The notes: generated by a model not told the origin, from the sequence alone. A DNA stretch of 64,000 nucleotides from Candidatus Aldehydirespirator catecholifindens (GCA_028283245.1 JAPYNU010000086.1:8-64007), one strand, 5' to 3'; counted from the stretch's first letter, positions 3,665 to 19,663 are shown. Made by a program: numbers and translations.

Positions 3665-4379
3665 GCATCGCAGCGCTGACACGCCGTCTGCCTCTGATCC
3701 CGAGGCAGCAACCCGCAAGTTGCTGTCAACAATCAGCGCACGCGTTGTTGCTGGGGTCGCATTGGTTGTTGCAGCCACTCTGATCGCTTTAGTGGCCGGA
3801 TCGGTGCTAGAGATCGGAGACTCTGACCAAGATGAGAGCTATCTGAACGTTTCGGAACTGAGCTTCGACAGCCTTGTTGTCACATACGACAATGACAGCT
3901 CGGCCAGTTCAATCAGCCCAGACAACCCAGACATTCCAGACAGCCCAGACATTCCAGACAACCCAGAAAACGTCAGCAACGCCAGCAGCTCAGGTTTCGT
4001 TGATCGCAAGCTTGGCGAATACGGCGGCAAGCCGCTCGTCGTGAATTTTTTCGCTTCGTGGTGCCCGCCTTGCGTTCGAGAGATGCCTGAGTTTCAGCGA
4101 GTGTTCGAGAAACTCAACGGGCGTGTGGCTTTTTTGGGGTTATCGCAAGATCGCACCGCGCAAGACGCTCTGGACTTGGTAGCGGCTACTGGCGTAACCT
4201 ATGACGTGGGCTGGGACCTTGACCTTGAGATTTATCAGGCAACCGAAAGCATCGCCATGCCTACCACTGCATTCGTTTCGCCCGAAGGCGACTTGCTCGA
4301 CACTTTCGCCGGGCTGCTCAACGAAGAGGCTCTGAACGAGCGAATCCGCAGCTTGTTCAACATTGCAATCGAAAGCTGA
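3603..4379 (+). CDS. TlpA/ResA-like thiol-disulfide oxidoreductase (membrane-anchored thioredoxin fold)
   Basis: N-terminal TM segment, CxxC motif FFASWCPPCVREMPEF, followed by ccdA. The start is uncertain because the ATG at 3603 overlaps the upstream gene by 62 nt. Confidence 0.8.
   Translation: MACCITGLSLPNNLSQALPPEHRSADTPSASDPEAATRKLLSTISARVVAGVALVVAATLIALVAGSVLEIGDSDQDESYLNVSELSFDSLVVTYDNDSSASSISPDNPDIPDSPDIPDNPENVSNASSSGFVDRKLGEYGGKPLVVNFFASWCPPCVREMPEFQRVFEKLNGRVAFLGLSQDRTAQDALDLVAATGVTYDVGWDLDLEIYQATESIAMPTTAFVSPEGDLLDTFAGLLNEEALNERIRSLFNIAIES
3918..3971 (+). repeat. In-frame 9-bp tandem repeat (ccagacNNN x6) encoding PDN-PDI-PDS-PDI-PDN-PEN
   Basis: Direct reading of ccagacaac ccagacatt ccagacagc ccagacatt ccagacaac ccagaaaac, in the linker of the TlpA-like protein. 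Confidence 0.85.
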
Positions 4380-9411: not shown

Positions 9412-10308
9412 CTAAACGCGGGGCTCAGCAGGTGGCGGGCCTAGGCGTTCGAATTCGGCTGCCACATCGGCTGTGGTGAGGGTGTCGTCTTTGAAGCGGC
9501 GTCGGCGTTCGGCGGCATCGGTTTGGCGTTGCGCAGCCGAAAAGCGAAAGAACTTGATGGCGATGAGCGTCCACAGATAGAGGCCTCCCAGCACTTTCAT
9601 CACTGCGCCCGCTGCTTGCTGGTCGGCCGTCACAGAAATGCCCCACAGCCGCTGGGCGTGGTCATAAATCGGGTAAACCGAGCCTTCAGCGAAAGTAAGC
9701 CATCCGGCGGGCACAGTAGGCACGATCGACATGGCAAACAGGTAGAGCATCTTTACAGGCTCAGAGAGTTGCATCTCTTTGATCGGTGAAACCACCGGCG
9801 TCCACATCGCCAAAGCACTGGCAAACATCAGCAGGTGCATTGAGTAGTGGAAGGCACCGTTTCGCACCGACAGATCCACCAGAGCGCTCCAATGCATCAA
9901 CCCTTGCAAGGCGTTGAAGATCACTCCAGCTGCTACAGGATGCGTCATCCGGCGGATTATGCGAGCCGCTCGTGACCCTTCCATCAGAATCAGTCGAGCC
10001 AACCATTCAGGCACGGCCATCACCATCAACGGCGGCACCACGAAACTGATCAGCAGATGCTGCAACATATGCACCGAATACAGGTAGTCCTCAGCGATGT
10101 CATGCATGGGCCAATCGGCTGATATCCACAACAGCAGCACTCCAACAACAAAACACAGCCGCTGTCGGCGTGTGACTACGGCACCGGCTGGTGCCGCTAC
10201 GGGCGCTACCACACGCACTACGTAGTAGCCGAGACCGACGATAGCGGCGATCATCAGCCACACCTCTGGATGGAACTGGAATTGCCAAGCGTCAGCGACG
10301 GCCAACAT
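9412..10308 (-). CDS. cytochrome c oxidase assembly factor, CtaG-like (caa3_CtaG type) membrane protein
   Basis: 298 aa polytopic membrane protein, last gene of the cta operon. The layout resembles Bacillus-type CtaG. Confidence 0.65.
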   Translation of the reverse strand: MLAVADAWQFQFHPEVWLMIAAIVGLGYYVVRVVAPVAAPAGAVVTRRQRLCFVVGVLLLWISADWPMHDIAEDYLYSVHMLQHLLISFVVPPLMVMAVPEWLARLILMEGSRAARIIRRMTHPVAAGVIFNALQGLMHWSALVDLSVRNGAFHYSMHLLMFASALAMWTPVVSPIKEMQLSEPVKMLYLFAMSIVPTVPAGWLTFAEGSVYPIYDHAQRLWGISVTADQQAAGAVMKVLGGLYLWTLIAIKFFRFSAAQRQTDAAERRRRFKDDTLTTADVAAEFERLGPPPAEPRV

Positions 10309-10357: not shown

Positions 10358-10735
10358 TTAGGCGAAAAACTCAAAGACTGTCAACGTCGCTACATAGACG
10401 CCCACAGCAAGCAGCAGCCCTGTGGTGAACATCCGACCGAACAGTTTGCTGTCGAAACGCAGATGCATGAACCAGGTAGCCACCAGATAAAACTTGACGA
10501 TCATCATAAAGATCAACGACGGCACCAGCGCCACACCCCAGTCGAGCACCGACTCAAAGTAGGTGAACACTTCCAGCGCCGTGATCACTGCAAGCGCCAA
10601 AGCGATCTTGACGTAAGCCCAATCTGAGGGATGGGCGTGGTCTTCGCTCGGGGCATCTGATTCGTGCGAAGCTGTCGCTGCGTGCTCGTCGACGTTGCCG
10701 GTGTTTGCTGCGGTTGGGGTGGTTGTGTCGCTCAT
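10358..10735 (-). CDS. ctaF: cytochrome c oxidase subunit IV (small prokaryotic COX4-type)
   Basis: 125 aa, three predicted TM helices, immediately downstream of subunit III. Has a His/Asp/Glu-rich N-terminal extension. Confidence 0.6.
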   Translation of the reverse strand: MSDTTTPTAANTGNVDEHAATASHESDAPSEDHAHPSDWAYVKIALALAVITALEVFTYFESVLDWGVALVPSLIFMMIVKFYLVATWFMHLRFDSKLFGRMFTTGLLLAVGVYVATLTVFEFFA

Positions 10736-10774: not shown

Positions 10775-11431
10775 TCAGTTGACGGGGATCAGATAGATGA
10801 CGGTGAAGATAAAGATCCACACGATGTCAACGAAATGCCAGTAAAGGCCGACGATCTCTACGGTCTCAGAGTTGCGTTGGTTAAGGTTCCCATTGACGGA
10901 TCTTATGAACAGCGACATCAGCATGACGATGCCTATGGCCACATGCACTCCGTGGAAACCGGTCAGCGTGAAGAATGCGCTGCTAGCTGGACTGGTGGTA
11001 AATCCCACGCCCTCACGCACGAAAGCCGTGAATTCGTAAACTTGGCCGCCGAGGAACACCGCTCCGAGCAATGCTGTAGCCAAGAGCCAGGCACGGCCAG
11101 CCTCTGCTTCGCCGCGATTCACGGCCGACAGAGCCAGCACCATCGTGAGCGAACTCATCAACAGCACAAAAGAACTCACCGATGTGAACGGAATGTCGAA
11201 CACGTCCGCAGGGAGCGTGCGTCCGTTGCCGCGAGTGGAATAAAGCAGATATGTGGAGATCAACCCGCCGAACAGCAGGCATTCCGAACCGAGGAACACC
11301 CACATGGCGAGCTTGGTGTTTGACAGACCTGTGGAAGTTGCGTGCGAGGCGTGACCATGATCTTCGCCGTGGTTATCGGCATCAACCGTCGACGTAGTCA
11401 CTGAACCGGCTGTCGCTGTTTCGGCGCTCAT
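10775..11431 (-). CDS. ctaE: cytochrome c oxidase subunit III
   Basis: 218 aa with motifs FFTLTGFHGVHV and GLYWHFVDIVW. Confidence 0.9.
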   Translation of the reverse strand: MSAETATAGSVTTSTVDADNHGEDHGHASHATSTGLSNTKLAMWVFLGSECLLFGGLISTYLLYSTRGNGRTLPADVFDIPFTSVSSFVLLMSSLTMVLALSAVNRGEAEAGRAWLLATALLGAVFLGGQVYEFTAFVREGVGFTTSPASSAFFTLTGFHGVHVAIGIVMLMSLFIRSVNGNLNQRNSETVEIVGLYWHFVDIVWIFIFTVIYLIPVN

Positions 11432-13437
11432 GGTGTCGCCTCATTTGAGTCGCTGTTGTCGACAGCGCGGTCGTTGGAGCCGTCGTCGTGATCGTCGTGA
11501 TCGTCGTGATCGTCGTGGGCGGCGTCGGGATCATCAACCGGTTCTAAAGCCCATGAATACAGCGAACCGATTGTCACCAGCGCACCAATCAGCGCAAACC
11601 AGAGATTGAAGATCAAGCCATAGCCGATCAGTGGCAGCCCCAAAGCCACAGACAACGGCCAGAAAGACGGCGAAGGCAGATGCACTCCTGTGGCCTCACC
11701 GGTCTGAGCAGCCTCTTGCGCTGTGGCTACTTGCACCACTTTGCCAGTGGAGTCTTCACCGTATTTGGTGTGCCACCAGTCGTCACGGCTGCGGATCTGC
11801 GGCACTGTGTCGAAGTTGTGTACCGGCACTGGTGAAGGCACCGACCATTCCAGACTTCGGGCATCCCAGGGATCTGGGCCCGGTGGCGGCAGATAGGGAG
11901 CATCTCGCCTGGACTTGAAAACATTCCACAGGAACAATGCCGTGGCTGCCGCTATCAAAAACGAGCCGATCGTGGCGGTCAAGTTCCAGAACTCAAAGCC
12001 GTAACCGCGGGCGTAGCTGTCAATGCGACGTGACATTCCTTGCAAACCAAGAATGTGCATCGGGCCGAAGGTCAAGTTGAAGCCCACCAGCGTCAACCAG
12101 AAATGCCAGTTGCCCACTCGTTCGCTGAGGAAATGCCCCCAGATCTTGGGCCACCAGAAATAGAGACCAGCGAACAGTCCGAGCACACCACCACCAAAGA
12201 TCACATAATGGAAATGCGCCACGATGTAGTAAGTGTCGGTTTGTTGAGTGTTGGCTGGTGCCACCGAATGGGTCACCCCCGACAATCCCCCGATAGTGAA
12301 CATCGCCACTGTTGCCACCGCGAACTTCATAGCCACTGTGAACCTGATCTTGCCACCCCACATCGTGGCCAGCCAGTTGAGCACTTTCACTCCTGTAGGC
12401 ACCGCAATGAACATGGTCGACAAAGAGAACGCCGCTACAGATATGGGTCCCATCCCCGACACGAACATGTGGTGAGCCCACACACCCCAGCCCATGAAAC
12501 CGATAGCGATGCCTGAGAACACCATGAACTCATAACCGAACAAAGGCTTGCGGCTAAAAGTGGGGATCACTTCGGATACCACCCCGAAGGCGGGCAAAAC
12601 GATGATATAAACCTCGGGATGCCCAAAAATCCAGAAGAGATGTTGCCACAGCAGCGGATCGGCACCGGCATCAACGTTGAAGAACTGAGCATCAAAAACC
12701 CGGTCGAACATCAACAAGAACAGCGCCACGGTGATCACCGGAAGAGCGAACAGCAATAGGAACTGTGTTATTAGCAGCATCCAAGTGAATATCGGCATAC
12801 GCATCAAGGTCATGCCGGGAGCACGCATGTTGAGACAGGTGACGATCAGGTTGACCGCCGACACTAAAGAGGCAAGCCCCAAGATTTGCAGTCCGATGGC
12901 GTAGAAGTCCACGCCATGGCTCGGCGAGAAAGCCACTCCGCTGTTGGGCGCATAGCAGAACCAGCCGCAATCTGCCCCTCCGCCGGCCACAATCCAAGAC
13001 GTGTTCAAGAAGATCGCGCCTGATAGCCACACCCAAAAAGACAAAGCATTGAGTCGCGGGAAAGCCACATCGCGTGCGCCGATTTGCAAAGGAATGAAGT
13101 AGTTCGCGAATGCTGCAGCGAGAGGCATGATGAACAAAAACACCATGGTGACGCCGTGCATGGTGTAAACCTGGTTGTAGACATCGGCGCTGAGCACAGA
13201 TCCGTCGGGCACAGCCAACTGCAGGCGGATCAGCAGAGCTTGGACGCCTCCCACCAAGAAAAAGAACATGGCAGAAACGCCGTAGAGGATCCCGATGCGT
13301 TTGTGGTCAACGGTGCTGAGCCAGTCGCGCCAGCCGCGCCCACCTTGCGGGCGCGTGAACACGCCGAGAGGTTTCTCGGCGTAACTGACGGTGTCGGCGG
13401 TGCCGAGTTCTAGCGGCTGCTTTTCAACTATTGCCAT
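11428..13437 (-). CDS. ctaD: cytochrome c oxidase subunit I with C-terminal extension
   Basis: All canonical ligand motifs are present: YTMHG, WIFGHPEVY, WAHHMF, VAHFHYV. The 669 aa include a two-TM extension and a DDH-repeat tail. Confidence 0.95.
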   Translation of the reverse strand: MAIVEKQPLELGTADTVSYAEKPLGVFTRPQGGRGWRDWLSTVDHKRIGILYGVSAMFFFLVGGVQALLIRLQLAVPDGSVLSADVYNQVYTMHGVTMVFLFIMPLAAAFANYFIPLQIGARDVAFPRLNALSFWVWLSGAIFLNTSWIVAGGGADCGWFCYAPNSGVAFSPSHGVDFYAIGLQILGLASLVSAVNLIVTCLNMRAPGMTLMRMPIFTWMLLITQFLLLFALPVITVALFLLMFDRVFDAQFFNVDAGADPLLWQHLFWIFGHPEVYIIVLPAFGVVSEVIPTFSRKPLFGYEFMVFSGIAIGFMGWGVWAHHMFVSGMGPISVAAFSLSTMFIAVPTGVKVLNWLATMWGGKIRFTVAMKFAVATVAMFTIGGLSGVTHSVAPANTQQTDTYYIVAHFHYVIFGGGVLGLFAGLYFWWPKIWGHFLSERVGNWHFWLTLVGFNLTFGPMHILGLQGMSRRIDSYARGYGFEFWNLTATIGSFLIAAATALFLWNVFKSRRDAPYLPPPGPDPWDARSLEWSVPSPVPVHNFDTVPQIRSRDDWWHTKYGEDSTGKVVQVATAQEAAQTGEATGVHLPSPSFWPLSVALGLPLIGYGLIFNLWFALIGALVTIGSLYSWALEPVDDPDAAHDDHDDHDDHDDGSNDRAVDNSDSNEATP
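11482..11517 (-). repeat. 9-bp tandem repeat x4 (plus-strand (g/a)tcgtcgtg) encoding the (DDH)n tail of subunit I
   Basis: Plus strand reads gtcgtcgtg atcgtcgtg atcgtcgtg atcgtcgtg. It translates on the minus strand to HDDHDDHDDHDD. Confidence 0.85.
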
Positions 13438-13438
13438 T

Positions 13439-14779
13439 TCAGTCCACCTGGGTTGCTTCGATTATCCACCCAGCAGGTTTGGCACCAAGACCTGCAAGGT
13501 AGGCCACCAACTGGTCGATCTGTGCTTCGTTGAGATCGAGATTAGGCATACCTCGATACTGCTCGCCAGGCACTATGTAGTTGGCCTTGAGTTCGCTCGG
13601 GTTGCGTAGCCAGGCCTCCAAAACGGTGCGGTTTAGTGAACCGTCAGCGTTGTAACTGTTGAAGATCCCGCCAGCGAAAGTGCTGCGGTTGGCGAAGTGA
13701 GTGAGGTTCGGAGCAGCACCTGATGCCTGATCGGCGCGCTCAAAGACATCGTCGTTGAGCCCTTCGACCACATGACAAGAAGTGCATATCCCTGCGAAGA
13801 CTTCCTGCCCAGCGAGCGCTTCAGGGTCGACAGGTTCGACTGCGTCAAGGCTGGTGTTGTTCACCCAAGCTTGGAAATCGGCAGGATCAAGCGCCACGGT
13901 TTGCATTCTCATGCGTGAGTGCGACAAGCCGCAGAACTCGGTGCATTGCCCGAAATACAAGCCTGGACTTGATGCTTGGATTTTCCACGGCGAGAAGCGG
14001 TTGGGGACGGCGTCTCGTTTGCCGTTGAGTGCCGGTATCCAAAACGAATGGATCACGTCACGTGAGGTGACGATCAGTTCGATCTCTTCACCGGTGGGGA
14101 TGATCATCTGTCCAGAGGTGACAATGTCAGCCGGTGGCAGCGTCTTGGCATCTCCATGGGCCCGTAGTTCAGCAAGGTCAACCTGATCTGAGAAGTAGTA
14201 GCGGAACTCCCACCACCATTGGTTGCCGACCACCACGACTGTGGGTTCCCAGTCGACGCTGCGCCCGTCGATTTCAACGGCCATCGTGTTGTCTTCGGTG
14301 GCGTTGACGGTGGGAAGCGACCAGAGCATCAAAGCAGCTACTGCCGCCATAGTCAGAAAGAACCCGACAGTCCAGCCGACTTCTAGAGGAACGTGGCCGT
14401 GAGTTTGTGAGGGCCATTCGTCGTCGGTGTCGTAGTTTTTGACTCGGTTGCGCCAGATCAGATAGATCATGGCGATGCTGATACCTACTAACACCACAGC
14501 AGCAATCCAAAACACCGGCAGCACCCCGCGGTTGTGCAGTTCTTCGGAGATGGGGCCTTGAGGAGCGAAAGTGTCGAGTTCGGCATCGGATGCACAGCCT
14601 GCGGCGATTAACACCCCCATAGCAGTGAGCAGCAATCCGCCGCTGCGTCGCAGTGCCGCGACGGGCTTCACAATCCTGCCGGTCGTCACGACAGTCCTGT
14701 TCGGCTTAGCCGTTTCAGCCAAAATTTTCTCCTTCGCTCGGCTCGCTAGAAGATTCATACGATTCTTCATTGTGGTCAT
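13439..14779 (-). CDS. ctaC: cytochrome c oxidase subunit II with fused cytochrome c domain (caa3-type)
   Basis: CuA motif CTEFCGLSHSRM and haem c motif CTSCHVV in the C-terminal domain. Lipobox-like LIAAGC. The start is uncertain: a GTG near 14689 would give a normal signal peptide and avoid overlapping the upstream gene. Confidence 0.9.
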   Translation of the reverse strand: MTTMKNRMNLLASRAKEKILAETAKPNRTVVTTGRIVKPVAALRRSGGLLLTAMGVLIAAGCASDAELDTFAPQGPISEELHNRGVLPVFWIAAVVLVGISIAMIYLIWRNRVKNYDTDDEWPSQTHGHVPLEVGWTVGFFLTMAAVAALMLWSLPTVNATEDNTMAVEIDGRSVDWEPTVVVVGNQWWWEFRYYFSDQVDLAELRAHGDAKTLPPADIVTSGQMIIPTGEEIELIVTSRDVIHSFWIPALNGKRDAVPNRFSPWKIQASSPGLYFGQCTEFCGLSHSRMRMQTVALDPADFQAWVNNTSLDAVEPVDPEALAGQEVFAGICTSCHVVEGLNDDVFERADQASGAAPNLTHFANRSTFAGGIFNSYNADGSLNRTVLEAWLRNPSELKANYIVPGEQYRGMPNLDLNEAQIDQLVAYLAGLGAKPAGWIIEATQVD

Positions 14780-15527
14780 CGCTGTGATGATGCTCAAAGT
14801 CCCGTTCACCAGCAACCGCAGCCAGCACCCCTCCAAGCAACAGTCCTAGCGCCGCTACTGCACCCAGCACACGCACCAGACGACGGCTTTGACCAGGTCG
14901 AGCCACATAAAGCCATGCGCCTGCAAGGATCAGCGCCGATACCACGCCAGCAACCGTCACTGCTTGCAGTTGTGACACATTCAACAAGATCCGTGACGCT
15001 GCTATCACCACCACACCGATAGCCAAAGCGCCAAAGATTGGTATCTCCAAAGGTGCCATGATGCGGTTGCGTAGTGCGCGGTTGGCCTCTGTGTCGCCGG
15101 TGGCACGATCAGCCCAAGCGTCAATAGTCCACTCAATCAGTGACAACACAACAAGTGCTAGTCCCAGAATGAACACCAGCGGATGTAGCACCAGTCCCAG
15201 CACAGCAGCACCAACCCCGAATGAGGCCGACACCGGCCAAAAACTGGCGGTGACTGTGGAGTCGGTTGGCACTTCCGCCAAGTTCTGCAAGCGGGCTTGG
15301 GCGTCAGCGTCGGCATCGCGGTAAGAAACCAACACCACACTGATCATCAACGACGCAGTCGCCAACGCCAGCAGCAGGCCGTAGCCGATGTGATCGCCCA
15401 CTGCGCCCTTCCAGCCCAGCGACAACGGCCCGACAGAGTCGCCACCGGTGGAGTATCCGTAGATGAGCGCAGCCACAACGAACGCGCCGAAAAGCCCGAA
15501 GAAGAGTTTGAAGCCGGTGGTGAACAT
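14715..15527 (-). CDS. polytopic membrane protein of unknown function, His/acidic C-terminal tail
   Basis: 270 aa with about 7 hydrophobic segments. The tail reads ERDFEHHHSDDHNEESYESSSEPSEGENFG. Embedded in the cta operon. Confidence 0.5.
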   Translation of the reverse strand: MFTTGFKLFFGLFGAFVVAALIYGYSTGGDSVGPLSLGWKGAVGDHIGYGLLLALATASLMISVVLVSYRDADADAQARLQNLAEVPTDSTVTASFWPVSASFGVGAAVLGLVLHPLVFILGLALVVLSLIEWTIDAWADRATGDTEANRALRNRIMAPLEIPIFGALAIGVVVIAASRILLNVSQLQAVTVAGVVSALILAGAWLYVARPGQSRRLVRVLGAVAALGLLLGGVLAAVAGERDFEHHHSDDHNEESYESSSEPSEGENFG

Positions 15528-15542
15528 CGTTGTGAAGATCCG

Positions 15543-16127
15543 CTACTTATTGATGAACACGACGTACCAGACAATGAAGTAGCACAGCACGCACATGTGC
15601 CAGTAGATCGCAGCGGCTTGCACCGTATGCGCTAGGTCGCGCCCCGGTGATCCCATCAAGGCACGGATGGTTGTGACGGTGAACATCGCCAAACCTGCGA
15701 GCAGCATGGCGATGAACGAACCTGTCACCACATAGAAGAGCAGTTGTGCGACACCGTCGTCAATAGCGAAGGCTGTGTCGGCGTAGACGAACCAGAACTG
15801 ATTGATTACCGCTGCACCGAACAGCAAGGTGACCGCCAACGCAATGAAGCCATGCGGGCGATCTTCAGTGCGTGCCGCTTGCACCGCCCATTGTACCGTC
15901 ACCATTGACAGCACTAGTGTCATCATCATCATCCCAGCAGGGCCTAGCTCCACGCTGCCTTCGGGGAACCATTCCTGGCCCGTAGCCCGAGCGTGCTGAC
16001 GCTGCTGCACATAGATCACTACCAAGCCAGCAAAAGCTATAAAGGCGGCACCGGTGGCTAGCAGTGATCCAACAGCGACGGTACGCGGTCGCGTTGCGAC
16101 TGGTGCGGGCAGAGCTGTGGTTCTCAT
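15543..16127 (-). CDS. haem-copper oxidase subunit III-like protein (divergent paralogue)
   Basis: 194 aa. AAAIYWHMCVLCYFIVW aligns to GLYWHFVDIVWIFIF of ctaE, and FYVVTGSFIAML aligns to FFTLTGFHGVHV. Confidence 0.6.
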   Translation of the reverse strand: MRTTALPAPVATRPRTVAVGSLLATGAAFIAFAGLVVIYVQQRQHARATGQEWFPEGSVELGPAGMMMMTLVLSMVTVQWAVQAARTEDRPHGFIALAVTLLFGAAVINQFWFVYADTAFAIDDGVAQLLFYVVTGSFIAMLLAGLAMFTVTTIRALMGSPGRDLAHTVQAAAIYWHMCVLCYFIVWYVVFINK

Positions 16128-17671
16128 GCTGTGCTGGCTTGCAGTGTGGCTTCAGCTGCTTCCCTGACCCGCATTGCCTGAGCCACTGCGGCCACTATGG
16201 CGGCGATTCCTAAGGCGAATGTCACAGATCCCACGAAGTTCAAAACGTTAAGCAACACGCTTCCGTCCAATGCCAAGGCCATAATGTCAGATTCTTCAGA
16301 TATGAAGCCGGAGACCAAATCGGACAGCACCAGCAGTCCGCCTCCTGCTCCTACTAGCAGCACGCTAGCGCCGCTGGCTCGTTTCGATACTGATGCATCG
16401 AATAACTCACTTGACCAGTGAACCATCGAAACAACGGCTGCTATGAACACCGCCGTGACTACGCCATGGAATACTGCCCAAGTGGCGGAGCTTTCCAGCA
16501 GATCAAGAGGCTCAATCACTCGCAACGCTCCCACCACGGTTGCAGCCCCCAGAACAAGTAAAGCTGCCGCAGCACCGATCATGCGTGTGTCAATCAACTG
16601 CTGCGGCTTCAGCGGGTTTTGTGTTGCTTGCATACCCAACGCGCCTATCAGGGCTGCGACCGGCACAACCGCGGCAAGACCAAACGCCACGTAGACCAGC
16701 CCGTCGCGCAGATCTTGAGGAGCTGTGAAATAGTCTTGCGACCAGCCGCCGACAGCCAGCAATGCGAATATGCCCACTATTGCGGCGATGGCCTCGGGAC
16801 GGCCAAAACGGGTGCCGAGCACTGCGCTGACAGCTTCGGCAGCGATGCCCAGCACTGGTACTGCCATGAGATACACGGCTGGCTGCTCAAACAGCCAGTC
16901 AAGCTGTAGCCAGATGTCAGGGCTTTCGGCTCGCCCGAAAGCAATCGCCGCACGGCCACGCAAATCCGCATACACCACAACAATGTTGGCGATAGCGATC
17001 GGCAGAGTAAAAAGCCATACTGCCGATGCCACAAGCATCGACCAAGCAAAAGGCGGCACATCCAAGAGGCTGGTTTCGGCGTCTCGCAGAGCGATTACTG
17101 TCGCCGCCAGCGACAGTGTGCCCATGAGCAGAGCCACGATCACTAGACCGGTGCCGAGCAGGGTCAACGCCATGGCATCGCCCTCGTTGCGAGTCACTCC
17201 GTCTAGTGCGCCCCAACCACCCCCGGCGAGCACTGACACCACCATGATTACAGAGCCGATCAGCCAAGACCAAAACGCTGCCAAAGCAGCCCGAGGAAAG
17301 GCCAGGTTCGCTGCTCCCACCTGTCGCGGCACTACAACCATGGCCACACCCAACAGCAGCGGCAGCAGCACCAGCAGCATCAGCGACACTCGATACAGAG
17401 TCCACATGCGGAAGTAGGCGTTGAGACCCGCAAAGACTTCGGCGGGTTCGACAGCGTCGCTGCGACCGAAGGCGACAAGCGCTCCGATGACCGCAGCGAA
17501 CATCGCCCAGAGCAGCGAAACCATCACGAACAATCGGCCGATGGCAGATCCGTCGCTGGTGACGAACGGCTGAGCCAGTGTCTGTGTCTCAGAGCCTGGT
17601 GTTGAGGTAGTTACGGCTGTTGCAGCGGACGCGACCTGAGGGTCTGCTGTGGCCGATTCGGTCAGCGTCAT
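16124..17671 (-). CDS. haem-copper oxidase subunit I-like protein lacking most metal-ligand histidines
   Basis: 515 aa, at least 12 TM. LAFPRAALAAFWSWLIG aligns to VAFPRLNALSFWVWLSG of ctaD. The ligand motifs read TLYRV, EQPAVY, SQDYF and VFHGV in place of TMHGV, GHPEVY, AHHMF and HFHYV. Confidence 0.65.
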   Translation of the reverse strand: MTLTESATADPQVASAATAVTTSTPGSETQTLAQPFVTSDGSAIGRLFVMVSLLWAMFAAVIGALVAFGRSDAVEPAEVFAGLNAYFRMWTLYRVSLMLLVLLPLLLGVAMVVVPRQVGAANLAFPRAALAAFWSWLIGSVIMVVSVLAGGGWGALDGVTRNEGDAMALTLLGTGLVIVALLMGTLSLAATVIALRDAETSLLDVPPFAWSMLVASAVWLFTLPIAIANIVVVYADLRGRAAIAFGRAESPDIWLQLDWLFEQPAVYLMAVPVLGIAAEAVSAVLGTRFGRPEAIAAIVGIFALLAVGGWSQDYFTAPQDLRDGLVYVAFGLAAVVPVAALIGALGMQATQNPLKPQQLIDTRMIGAAAALLVLGAATVVGALRVIEPLDLLESSATWAVFHGVVTAVFIAAVVSMVHWSSELFDASVSKRASGASVLLVGAGGGLLVLSDLVSGFISEESDIMALALDGSVLLNVLNFVGSVTFALGIAAIVAAVAQAMRVREAAEATLQASTA

Positions 17672-17683
17672 CGTGAAGCGATG

Positions 17684-18583
17684 CTACACAATGAGCACAT
17701 CAGCCGCGACCGCGCCGAACAAAATCATGACATAAACGTTGGACCAGCCGAACAGCCGCAGCGACCGTGTGGGTTCGGGATTGCGCATTACATCAACGGC
17801 CAGACCAATGAAGCCAGCCCCCGCAACACTCGCCGCCAGCAAATAAACAATGCCCATGTCGGCAACCGGCACCAGCAGCAACGATAACGCCACCAGCACC
17901 ACCGTGTAGGCCACGATGCGATGAGCGGTGGCTTTGAGACTCATCACCGCTGGCAGCATGGGCACATCAGCAGCCTGATAGTCGCTGCGGTAGCGGATCG
18001 CCAGCGCCCAGAAGTGCGGCGGTGTCCAATAGAAGATCACTGCGAACAGCACCAGCGGCGGCCAATCAAGAGAGCCTGTGACCGCGGCCCAGCCCACCAA
18101 TGTCGGCATTGCGCCAGCGGCACCACCGATCACAATGTTGCGTACCGAAGTGCGTTTCAGCCACAGCGAATACACGAATACATAGAAGGCGGCCGCAGCA
18201 GTGGCTAGTGTCGCAGCCAGCAGGTTCGCGAAGGCCCAAAGCCACACGAACGACACCGCTATCAGCGCCGACGCGAACACCGCCGCCTCAACGGGTCTCA
18301 CCGTACCGGTTACCAAAGGTCGATTGCGGGTGCGGTGCATCAACTTGTCAATGTCACGATCGATGTACATGTTCAAGGCGTTAGCACCGCCAGCCGACAT
18401 AGCACCGCCTATCACGGTGGCTGCGATGAGCCACAACGACGGCAGGCCGCCTTGCGCCAGGATCATTGACGGAACGGTGGTGACCAGCAGCAGTTCAACG
18501 ATTCGAGGCTTTGTCAAAGCGACGAAAGCTGCGGCTCGGGCACGGCGTGGTGAGCGCATCGTTGCGGTCACGGTTTCGGTCAC
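17684..18583 (-). CDS. ctaB: protohaem IX farnesyltransferase (haem O synthase)
   Basis: 299 aa UbiA-family protein with LTKPRIVELLL, NMYIDRDIDKLMHRTRNRPL and PPHFWALA. Confidence 0.9.
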   Translation of the reverse strand: MTETVTATMRSPRRARAAAFVALTKPRIVELLLVTTVPSMILAQGGLPSLWLIAATVIGGAMSAGGANALNMYIDRDIDKLMHRTRNRPLVTGTVRPVEAAVFASALIAVSFVWLWAFANLLAATLATAAAAFYVFVYSLWLKRTSVRNIVIGGAAGAMPTLVGWAAVTGSLDWPPLVLFAVIFYWTPPHFWALAIRYRSDYQAADVPMLPAVMSLKATAHRIVAYTVVLVALSLLLVPVADMGIVYLLAASVAGAGFIGLAVDVMRNPEPTRSLRLFGWSNVYVMILFGAVAADVLIV

Positions 18584-18667: not shown

Positions 18668-19663
18668 TTGAGACGCAGCGGGCTCTACCATCGAAGTGTG
18701 ACCCCGACTGCTTATACCCGGCTCACTCGGTTTGCTCTTTGGGCACTTGCAGCGATCGTCGTGACTGGAGTTTCGGTGCGACTCACTGGATCGGGACTGG
18801 GATGCGAGGACTGGCCCACCTGTTCGGAAGACCGTTTTGTAGCGGATCTTGAGTTCCATGCTCTGGTTGAGTTCGTGAATCGACTCTTCACCGGTGTCGT
18901 GGCTGTTGCTGTGATCGCAGCCGTGCTGGGCTCTTGGTGGAGACGACCGCGCCGCACCGATCTGGTGTGGTTATCGCTGGGGTTGGTGGTTGGCGTGCTT
19001 GCCCAGGTCGGGCTAGGGGCTTTGTTGGTTTTGTCAGAGCTTGATCCTCGTTTCACGATGGGGCACTTCTTGTTGTCGATGGTGCTGCTGTGGAATGCGG
19101 CTGTGCTTGACGTGCAAGCTCGAGACCTTGACAACCCAGTCGGTACCGCACACAGACGCAAAGCCAGCGCAAATACAAATACCATGACCCAGATAGCTCT
19201 ATGGGCTGTGGTGATCGTCGCTACAGCGTTGTTGTTCAGCGGCACTCTGGTCACTGGCGCGGGCCCACACGCCGGTGACAGTCGGGCCGAGCGGTTGCCA
19301 CTGCTGGTGCGTGAAGTGGCACGAATCCACAGCATCATCGCGATTGCTTTGCTGGCTCTGGTGATCTGGGCTTATTGGCGGCTTCGGGTATCTGGATCAA
19401 CTAAACAAGTCCGCATGCGAAGGATCGCAGAACTGTTAATCGTGCAGGGTGCCATTGGCTATGCACAGTATTTTCTAGGTGTACCAGTGCTTCTTGTAGG
19501 GATTCATGTTACTCTGGCATCGATCACTTGGATTCAGATAATCAAGGTGGCCTACGAGCCAGCAACGCCCAGCGGGGCAGCCTTGAGCCGCGGCTTCACA
19601 AACAACAGACCGGGTGGCTACAGACCCACGGATAGCGAAGCTCTGCTTGGATCGCAGCCATGA
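18668..19663 (+). CDS. ctaA: haem A synthase (COX15/CtaA)
   Basis: [15 protein letters not shown] motif, 8 TM, conserved His in TM segments. Divergent from ctaB, as in the Bacillus arrangement. Confidence 0.85.

Follow-up and report, generated by a model that had tools for sequence, protein, structure and literature searches.

A conserved, apparently undescribed non-catalytic copy of the haem-copper oxidase core inside the caa3 oxidase operon of Acidimicrobiales

In this paper we analyse three genes that lie inside the operon of a caa3-type cytochrome c oxidase (the cta operon) of Candidatus Aldehydirespirator catecholifindens, a member of the order Acidimicrobiales. They are found between ctaB and ctaC on a stretch of 64,000 nucleotides (GCA_028283245.1 JAPYNU010000086.1:8-64007), which we call the window, and we name them pI, pIII and pIV. 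Few membrane enzymes have been studied as thoroughly as the haem-copper oxidases, and our results show that the trio is a real and conserved set of non-catalytic paralogues in this well-known family, apparently undescribed so far. From sequence and model evidence we infer its function, and we give a probability of roughly one half to the trio now serving the caa3 oxidase as a structural partner without redox activity. The original prediction, which was made from the DNA sequence of the window, proposed a catalytically dead yet maintained pseudo-oxidase module. This is supported by the ligand and channel columns, the fold, the synteny, the co-inheritance with the oxidase and the ratio of nonsynonymous to synonymous substitution rates (dN/dS).

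Subunit I paralogue

The interval between ctaB and ctaC consists of three tightly coupled genes on the minus strand, and the three tightly packed genes that had been predicted there are borne out by the coordinates and junctions of the open reading frames:

16124..17671, minus strand: pI, 515 amino acids, paralogue of COX1 (subunit I) with a fold of 12 transmembrane helices
15543..16127, minus strand: pIII, 194 amino acids, five-helix paralogue of CtaE/COX3
14715..15527, minus strand: pIV, 270 amino acids, protein with seven transmembrane helices

The product of pI is a homologue of subunit I along its length, as had been claimed. Residues 44-464 match PF00115 (E-value 2e-32, 113 bits, cut-off 34.8) and residues 37-508 match TIGR02891, the latter with only 146 bits against an equivalog cut-off of 671 that the real CtaD of the same operon passes with 686 bits. 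The best sequence matches of pI are A-family haem-copper oxidase cores, and its profile matches are to solved subunit I chains. There is no match to TIGR00780 (CcoN) at E <= 0.1, the best models being those of the A-family. An AlphaFold model built with 65 homologues is confident, with a predicted local distance difference test (pLDDT) of 85 and a predicted template modelling score (pTM) of 0.88. When this model is compared by Foldseek with bovine, yeast, Paracoccus and mycobacterial COX1, the TM-score is 0.76-0.80 across all 12 helices. The objection that the protein might belong to an unrelated transporter family can be set aside, as pI falls in no other family.

A functional haem-copper oxygen reductase has six invariant histidines, of which two bind the low-spin haem, one the high-spin haem and three CuB. 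The corresponding positions of pI were located by aligning it with HMMER to CtaD of mycobacteria and QoxB of B. subtilis. Tyr93 (TLYRV) is found at the position of the helix II His, and Gln263 replaces the first CuB His where GHPEVY has become EQPAVY, with the cross-link Tyr267 retained. The HHM pair has turned into Q312-D313-Y and HFHY into V400-F-H402-G, which places Val400 at the haem a3 His position and leaves His402, at the second haem a position, as the sole survivor of the six haem and copper histidines. Residues of the D- and K-channels are lost as well, the equivalents of D132, N139, E286 and K362 being N, A, A and L, and the Arg pair that binds the haem propionates is E-S. All of these channel and Arg residues are kept in each of the true CtaD sequences aligned alongside (89/89). 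The substitutions listed in the original prediction (Tyr in helix II, EQPAVY, QDY, and VFHG with one His) are reproduced by the alignment, and this also answers the objection that the histidines might be present but offset: they are truly replaced and not shifted.

By sequence and fold, pI belongs to the haem-copper oxidase superfamily, but it is not a functional oxygen reductase as judged by these residues. Taken together, the pI, pIII and pIV proteins of the window lack a copper domain and the D and K proton paths, as well as any usable site for haem a, haem a3 or CuB. Because these cofactor sites and proton paths are missing, the module cannot reduce oxygen or pump protons as the real enzyme does.

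The residues that took the place of the ligands are conserved among 120 close homologues of pI (Y in 113/120, Q in 119/120, Q in 120/120 and D in 114/120), and Arg94 is invariant among them. The column of His402 is more variable, with His in 83/120 and Asn or another residue in 37/120. Across the whole order, the conserved positions of pI are nearly all Pro, Gly and Trp together with loop residues common to real COX1, and Gln312 is the only former-ligand position that is conserved.

Paralogue of subunit III and probable paralogue of subunit IV

The second gene had been said to resemble subunit III, and this holds: pIII matches PF00510 above the cut-off (E-value 8e-11, 42.7 bits, cut-off 23.8), and the profile of its family matches solved COX3 and CtaE chains with E-values of 1e-22 to 1e-20, covering mycobacterial CtaE in full length.

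The third gene had been described as coding for an unassigned protein of about seven transmembrane helices. The helix count stands, whereas the lack of an assignment does not, since a weakly CtaF-like part and a homologous cupredoxin anchor were identified. The positive-inside rule places the N-terminus of the seven predicted helices inside and the C-terminal tail outside. Residues 7-135 match PF12270 (CtaF) weakly (17.2 bits, E-value 0.0055), below the cut-off of 26.9. Matches to PF12270 at E <= 0.05 are seen in 5/16 members of the pIV family, and a longer relative of pIV, P0168, passes the cut-off with 31.1 bits. Against solved structures the family profile gave only noise (E >= 0.1), and no solved CtaF chain was found. 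The AlphaFold model of pIV is poor (pLDDT 62, pTM 0.36). Residues 144-240 form an anchor of three transmembrane helices that is homologous to the anchor of a cupredoxin protein (hhalign probability 97.6%, E-value 3e-12). A cupredoxin protein with such a pIV-like three-helix anchor is encoded directly after ctaG in another actinobacterial class. The last part of the protein, residues 240-270, is a tail of His and acidic residues (GERDFEHHH...) that is predicted to face outward, and in nearly all loci at least one His follows the invariant G-E-R motif of this tail.

The pIV protein of the window has no type-1 copper cupredoxin domain (PF13473 / PF00127) and stops 30 residues past the last helix. 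The domain is gone in the window and in about 77 of the loci, where only the linker is left as the His/acidic tail. An exhaustive profile search found 1152 representatives of the pIV family (clusters at 50% identity). Among the best 150 of these, 47 have a length of at least 330 amino acids, and a C-terminal cupredoxin domain is present in 7/10 of the long ones scanned. The full type-1 copper motif (H...C-x-x-H-x-x-M) is found in 7/47 long relatives and has been lost in most others; the domain and its ligands are both present in P0127, P0187, P0235 and L099. From these comparisons, pIV is probably composed of a weakly CtaF-like part of four helices (residues 1-140) and the anchor of an oxidase-linked cupredoxin, of which the copper domain appears to have been lost in this lineage.

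In two loci pIII and pIV are naturally fused in frame (L030 11588-13060, plus strand, and L088 10842-12470, minus strand), and in one locus the genuine ctaE and ctaF are fused (L099 6481-7512, minus strand). All three could be sequencing errors in long-read metagenome-assembled genomes (MAGs).

Operon layout

The trio is part of a series of nine head-to-tail genes on the minus strand of the window, in the order ctaB, pI, pIII, pIV, ctaC, ctaD, ctaE, ctaF and ctaG, ending at 9412. The names of the genuine cta genes are supported by Pfam and NCBIfam matches:

18668..19663, plus strand: ctaA, haem A synthase, divergent from the operon
17684..18583, minus strand: ctaB, haem O synthase of the UbiA family, first gene of the operon, with its stop 12 nucleotides upstream of pI
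13439..14722, minus strand: ctaC, genuine subunit II, with a CuA domain and a fused cytochrome c
11428..13437, minus strand: ctaD, genuine subunit I, 669 amino acids, all ligand, channel and Arg residues present
10775..11431, minus strand: ctaE, genuine subunit III
10358..10735, minus strand: ctaF, Bacillus-type subunit IV (COX4_pro)
9412..10308, minus strand: ctaG, Caa3_CtaG assembly factor, last gene of the operon

The spacer between ctaB and pI is 12 nucleotides long, pI and pIII overlap in an ATGA, and 15 nucleotides separate pIII from pIV. Further downstream pIV and ctaC overlap, ctaC and ctaD are 1 nucleotide apart, and ctaD and ctaE again share an ATGA. The likely start of ctaC is the TTG at 14722 behind AAGGAG, which overlaps the end of pIV, with the reading frame open up to 14836. 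This layout from ctaB to ctaG suggests a single translationally coupled operon, in which co-expression would follow from the gene packing only. The genome has a single COX2 gene, ctaC, and two genes of the COX1 family, pI and ctaD.

The C-terminus of CtaD (window positions 11428-11700, minus strand) carries an extension of two helices that resembles the second half of the actinobacterial CtaF (PF12270 positions 74-125, E-value 6e-5), followed by a tail of DDH repeats. A helix-pair motif, S-F-W-P ... W..E, is common to this extension and to helices 3-4 of pIV.

Taxonomic distribution and selection

Among 5.8 billion proteins searched, pI has 256 relatives, the most distant of them at 43% identity. 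All 80 loci that come from reference genomes belong to MAGs of Acidimicrobiales (Ca. Aldehydirespirator, Ca. Microthrix and others), and the order ctaA | ctaB-pI-pIII-pIV-ctaC-D-E-F-G is the same in 80/80 of them, as far as the contigs reach. The same gene order is seen in 18 deeper loci, which come from 11/13 sampled families of the order (labelled f1-f13), and the Ilumatobacteraceae also carry the module. Among 200 genomes of the class, almost all of those that belong to this order have a pI-like gene at a distance of about 4 kb from ctaD. The families f4, f5 and f10 of this order are without the module and carry a different oxidase.

In a maximum-likelihood tree, pI is monophyletic (SH-aLRT, an approximate likelihood ratio test, 99), and it branches in the same pattern as the ctaD of the same loci while evolving several times faster. 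The monophyly and the mirrored tree point to a single origin at the base of Acidimicrobiales, followed by vertical inheritance together with ctaC-D-E-F-G.

The dN/dS values over 12 close pairs are 0.11-0.34 for pI, 0.02-0.27 for pIII and 0.07-0.33 for pIV; for the comparison genes they are 0.11-0.29 (ctaC) and 0.03-0.16 (ctaD). No locus of the order shows a broken reading frame in pI, pIII or pIV. The possibility that these are decaying pseudogenes had been named as an objection to the original prediction, and what we find instead is intact frames, fixed synteny and purifying selection. A remnant without function, either a decaying duplicate or a hitch-hiker in the operon, is therefore very improbable: the faster evolution of pI relative to ctaD and the stepwise loss of its cofactor ligands would fit such a reading, but frames are intact order-wide, dN/dS, at 0.1-0.2, lies in the range of ctaC and ctaB, the AlphaFold fold of pI is confident, and pIV alone comprises 1152 clusters at 50% identity.

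A sister order of the class is without the module and has, in the slot between ctaB and ctaC, a lipoprotein of 274 amino acids with a C-terminal CxxxC and no Pfam match (L144 12325-13149, minus strand), which from its sequence may be Sco- or thioredoxin-like.

Graded cofactor loss

The early-branching relatives of the module show how its present state may have arisen. We read six modules with an intact type-1 copper site in context (L099, L152, L154, L155, L156 and L157), and all of them occupy the same operon slot. Both haem a histidines are found in the pI of 6/6 of these modules and the haem a3 histidine in addition in 3/6; the pI of L152 also keeps the propionate Arg pair. None of the CuB histidines is found in any of the six. 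Of the roughly 90 modules that lack type-1 copper, L089 is the only one with both haem a histidines. When the tree is rooted on genuine CtaD, the modules that still bear ligands make up a basal grade, and all fully stripped modules including that of the window form one derived clade (SH-aLRT 93), with a secondary loss in L098 besides. The ctaD tree also places L099 and L089/L098 early. These comparisons of sequences suggest that the module of the window is the fully stripped end point of a stepwise loss, which would have started from a redox-active, cupredoxin-fed, oxidase-like paralogue.

We also considered whether pI descends from an older actinobacterial aa3 type, with ctaD acquired later. 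This is unsupported, as the sister position of pI to the whole of the actinobacterial A-type CtaD involves a long branch and may reflect long-branch attraction.

One of the six loci with type-1 copper, L157, has an extra small gene for a cupredoxin lipoprotein with copper ligands (3683-4069, minus strand), which lies between pIV and ctaC on the opposite strand.

Proposed role and alternatives

The original prediction listed several candidate roles, among them a scaffold or supercomplex subunit, an assembly or haem-handling factor and a channel. Sequence alone does not separate these roles, although the options of a channel and of a replacement for Surf1 are weakened. We suggest the following model. 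The ancestral module would have been a second oxidase-like electron-transfer unit, in which the cupredoxin of pIV stood in the place of the CuA domain of subunit II. The cofactors would then have been lost, with selection retaining the membrane skeleton only. Today pI, pIII and pIV would assemble like a I/III/IV core, and this core would sit beside the real caa3 oxidase in a fixed proportion given by translational coupling. What leads us to such a structural partner is the combination of an ancient single paralogue set, the loss of its redox and proton residues, a fold under purifying selection, the coupling and the pIII::pIV fusions.

Several observations weigh against this model. The polar residues at the former metal sites (Y93, R94, D258, E262, Q263, Q312 and D313) are strongly conserved within the family of the window, and this cluster could mean a site-specific function rather than the filling of a cavity. 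Other orders and classes of Actinomycetota have the same ctaC-D-E-F-G type of caa3 operon without the trio, so that the oxidase does not in principle need the module. The rates of evolution give no help either: over 24 independent locus pairs no covariation is significant, with rho of about 0.37 for pI against pIII, ctaC and ctaB and -0.35 against ctaD, values that are biased by the closure of relative rates. Finally, the pI tree is rooted through a long branch, and long-branch effects on the root are possible.

The main rival to a structural partner is a transient scaffold or chaperone for the assembly of the real oxidase, comparable to NifEN, which would for instance hold CtaC or other new subunits, or pass on copper by way of the pIV tail, and would stay outside the mature enzyme. 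We judge this unlikely, though it is the alternative to be taken most seriously. The trio lies between ctaB and ctaC, beside the divergent ctaA, in an operon shared with Caa3_CtaG, and the pIV tail, with its predicted outward position and at least one His in nearly all loci, would suit the handling of copper. The module also co-occurs with Surf1: Surf1 (PF02104) is present in the genome of the window and in every module-bearing genome sampled, and the families f4, f5 and f10 are without either. On the other hand no haem ligand in pI is conserved across the order, and with Surf1, CtaA, CtaB and Caa3_CtaG all present there is no obvious assembly step left unserved. A set of 12, 5 and 7 transmembrane helices that is translationally coupled to structural genes would also be large for a chaperone, and other lineages assemble the same caa3 operon without it. 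That the module is a replacement for Surf1, the haem a chaperone, is rejected in view of the co-occurrence of the two, which is not a complementary distribution.

Residual cofactor binding appears improbable. Here pI would hold a haem through Tyr93 and His402, and the His-rich tail of pIV a copper, for the carrying or storage of electrons, haem or metal. Ligation of haem by Tyr and His occurs in other proteins, Tyr93 is found in 113/120 close homologues beside the invariant Arg94, His402 is present in the pI of the window, and early-branching relatives retain a type-1 copper site along with haem a sites that have both His. However, His402 gives way to Asn or other residues in 37/120 close homologues, acidic residues are found in place of the propionate-binding Arg pair, both Tyr93 and His402 are unconserved across the order, and the pIV of the window is entirely without the cupredoxin domain.

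We give about as little credit to an independent channel or transporter for ions or protons, in which the emptied COX1 fold would serve as a conduit unrelated to the oxidase complex. The antiporter-like subunits of other respiratory complexes are a general precedent, and the family of the window conserves polar and charged residues buried where the binuclear site used to be (D258, E262, Q263, Y267, S311, Q312 and D313). But the equivalents of D132, N139, E286 and K362 are N, A, A and L, the polar cluster is unconserved across the order except for Gln312, and a channel of this kind would leave the strict linkage to the cta operon unexplained.

Returning to the structural partner, a more specific and doubtful form of it can be proposed. 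The caa3 oxidase of Acidimicrobiales might be a pseudo-heterodimer of the active CtaCDEF and a stoichiometric, cofactor-free I'/III'/IV' that derives from it. The early-branching relatives might represent a separate undescribed redox enzyme of this superfamily, in which a type-1 copper cupredoxin is fused to IV', I' holds haem a and in some cases haem a3 as well, and CuB is missing. If true, such a pseudo-heterodimer architecture would be undescribed for any haem-copper oxidase.

Comparison with known systems

The closest comparison is the A-family oxidase core itself (CtaD/CtaE/CtaF), as known from M. smegmatis (6ADQ/6HWH), C. glutamicum (7Q21) and B. subtilis aa3-600 (6KOB). With this core pI shares the fold of 12 transmembrane helices (TM-score about 0.78), pIII aligns over its full length with mycobacterial CtaE, and the N-terminal half of pIV is weakly similar to the CtaF family PF12270. 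In contrast to it, pI is without the three CuB histidines, the haem a3 His and one of the two haem a histidines, its channel residues and propionate Arg are lost, and the module comes without its own subunit II.

The nitrogenase scaffold NifEN is a paralogue of NifDK that binds clusters and has a demonstrated role in maturation. The trio is likewise a paralogue of a catalytic metalloenzyme core that lies in the same gene cluster and does not catalyse the reaction. The difference is that NifEN binds clusters, whereas no ligand is conserved in pI.

Sulfocyanin of the Sulfolobus SoxM complex is a membrane-anchored blue-copper protein linked to an oxidase. Another is AcoP of Acidithiobacillus, which is tied to a terminal oxidase (bioRxiv 10.1101/2022.03.21.484586). 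The relatives of pIV are similar to these proteins in that they end in a periplasmic type-1 copper cupredoxin and are encoded within a cytochrome oxidase operon. The pIV of the window differs in lacking the copper domain, and it is anchored by seven transmembrane helices, a CtaF-like part among them, instead of by one helix.

In cytochrome bd of the CydAA' type, CydA' is a paralogous partner of the catalytic subunit, as shown in the purified enzyme (bioRxiv 10.1101/2021.01.16.426971). By analogy with CydAA' (and CydAB), our working model is that of a partner subunit of a terminal oxidase that would have arisen by duplication of the catalytic subunit, with the architecture kept. Cytochrome bd belongs to another superfamily with an unrelated fold, and one subunit was duplicated there as opposed to three here, where the trio is known from sequence and models.

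Annotation and significance

In public databases the relatives of pI are named "cbb3-type cytochrome c oxidase subunit I", "haem/copper-type oxidase subunit 1" or "hypothetical". The label of a cbb3-type subunit I (CcoN) is wrong for pI, since there is no TIGR00780 match and the neighbouring genes are COX3-like and CtaF-like and not ccoO. Labelling the gene as a second ("cbb3-type") oxidase inflates the respiratory capacity that is inferred in metagenome studies. On the ecological side, Acidimicrobiales occur in large numbers in seawater and fresh water, in sponges, in soil and in activated sludge (Microthrix).

In the literature on ligand-less or pseudo haem-copper oxidases, the caa3 oxidase of Acidimicrobiia and the respiration of Microthrix, we found the module undescribed; our coverage was incomplete, and such an absence is not proof. 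To our knowledge, no case has been described of a complete cofactor-free copy of the I/III/IV core that is kept by selection beside the working enzyme. If the trio is a subunit set of the mature complex, it would reveal the tasks of the oxidase scaffold apart from catalysis, such as the handling of lipid or oxygen, supercomplex docking or stability. The series from type-1 copper with haem a/a3, through haem a only, to no cofactor is ready-made for studying how a respiratory enzyme turns into a structural protein.

Further observations

The MAGs nearest to the window are assigned to Ca. Aldehydirespirator. A paper that names this genus has linked the GPP34 proteins of Actinobacteriota to sponge symbiosis (PMC11706023).

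In the genome of the window, cytochrome b is split as a b6-type pair (L101 814-2926, plus strand), with an N-terminal part of 264 amino acids and a subunit-IV-like part of 272 amino acids. A gene for a 4Fe-4S dicluster ferredoxin-like protein lies directly upstream, an arrangement unlike the actinobacterial QcrCAB. Docking of the module to an actinobacterial bcc complex is weakened as an option, because this split pair, which is not QcrCAB, is the only cytochrome b of the genome.

A second and unrelated group of ligand-poor proteins of the COX1 family is found in other Actinomycetota (L132 5634-7037, plus strand; L137 6511-8028, minus strand; L133, L134, L135 and L136). These proteins have 467-558 amino acids, match PF00115 with 81-135 bits and carry a GRLR motif in helix II that is similar to that of the C-family and nitric oxide reductases (NOR). 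In a MAFFT alignment, which is tentative between such distant families, they are without the histidines of helix II, CuB and the high-spin haem. In L132 and L137 the next gene downstream encodes a FixO/CcoO-like mono-haem cytochrome c.

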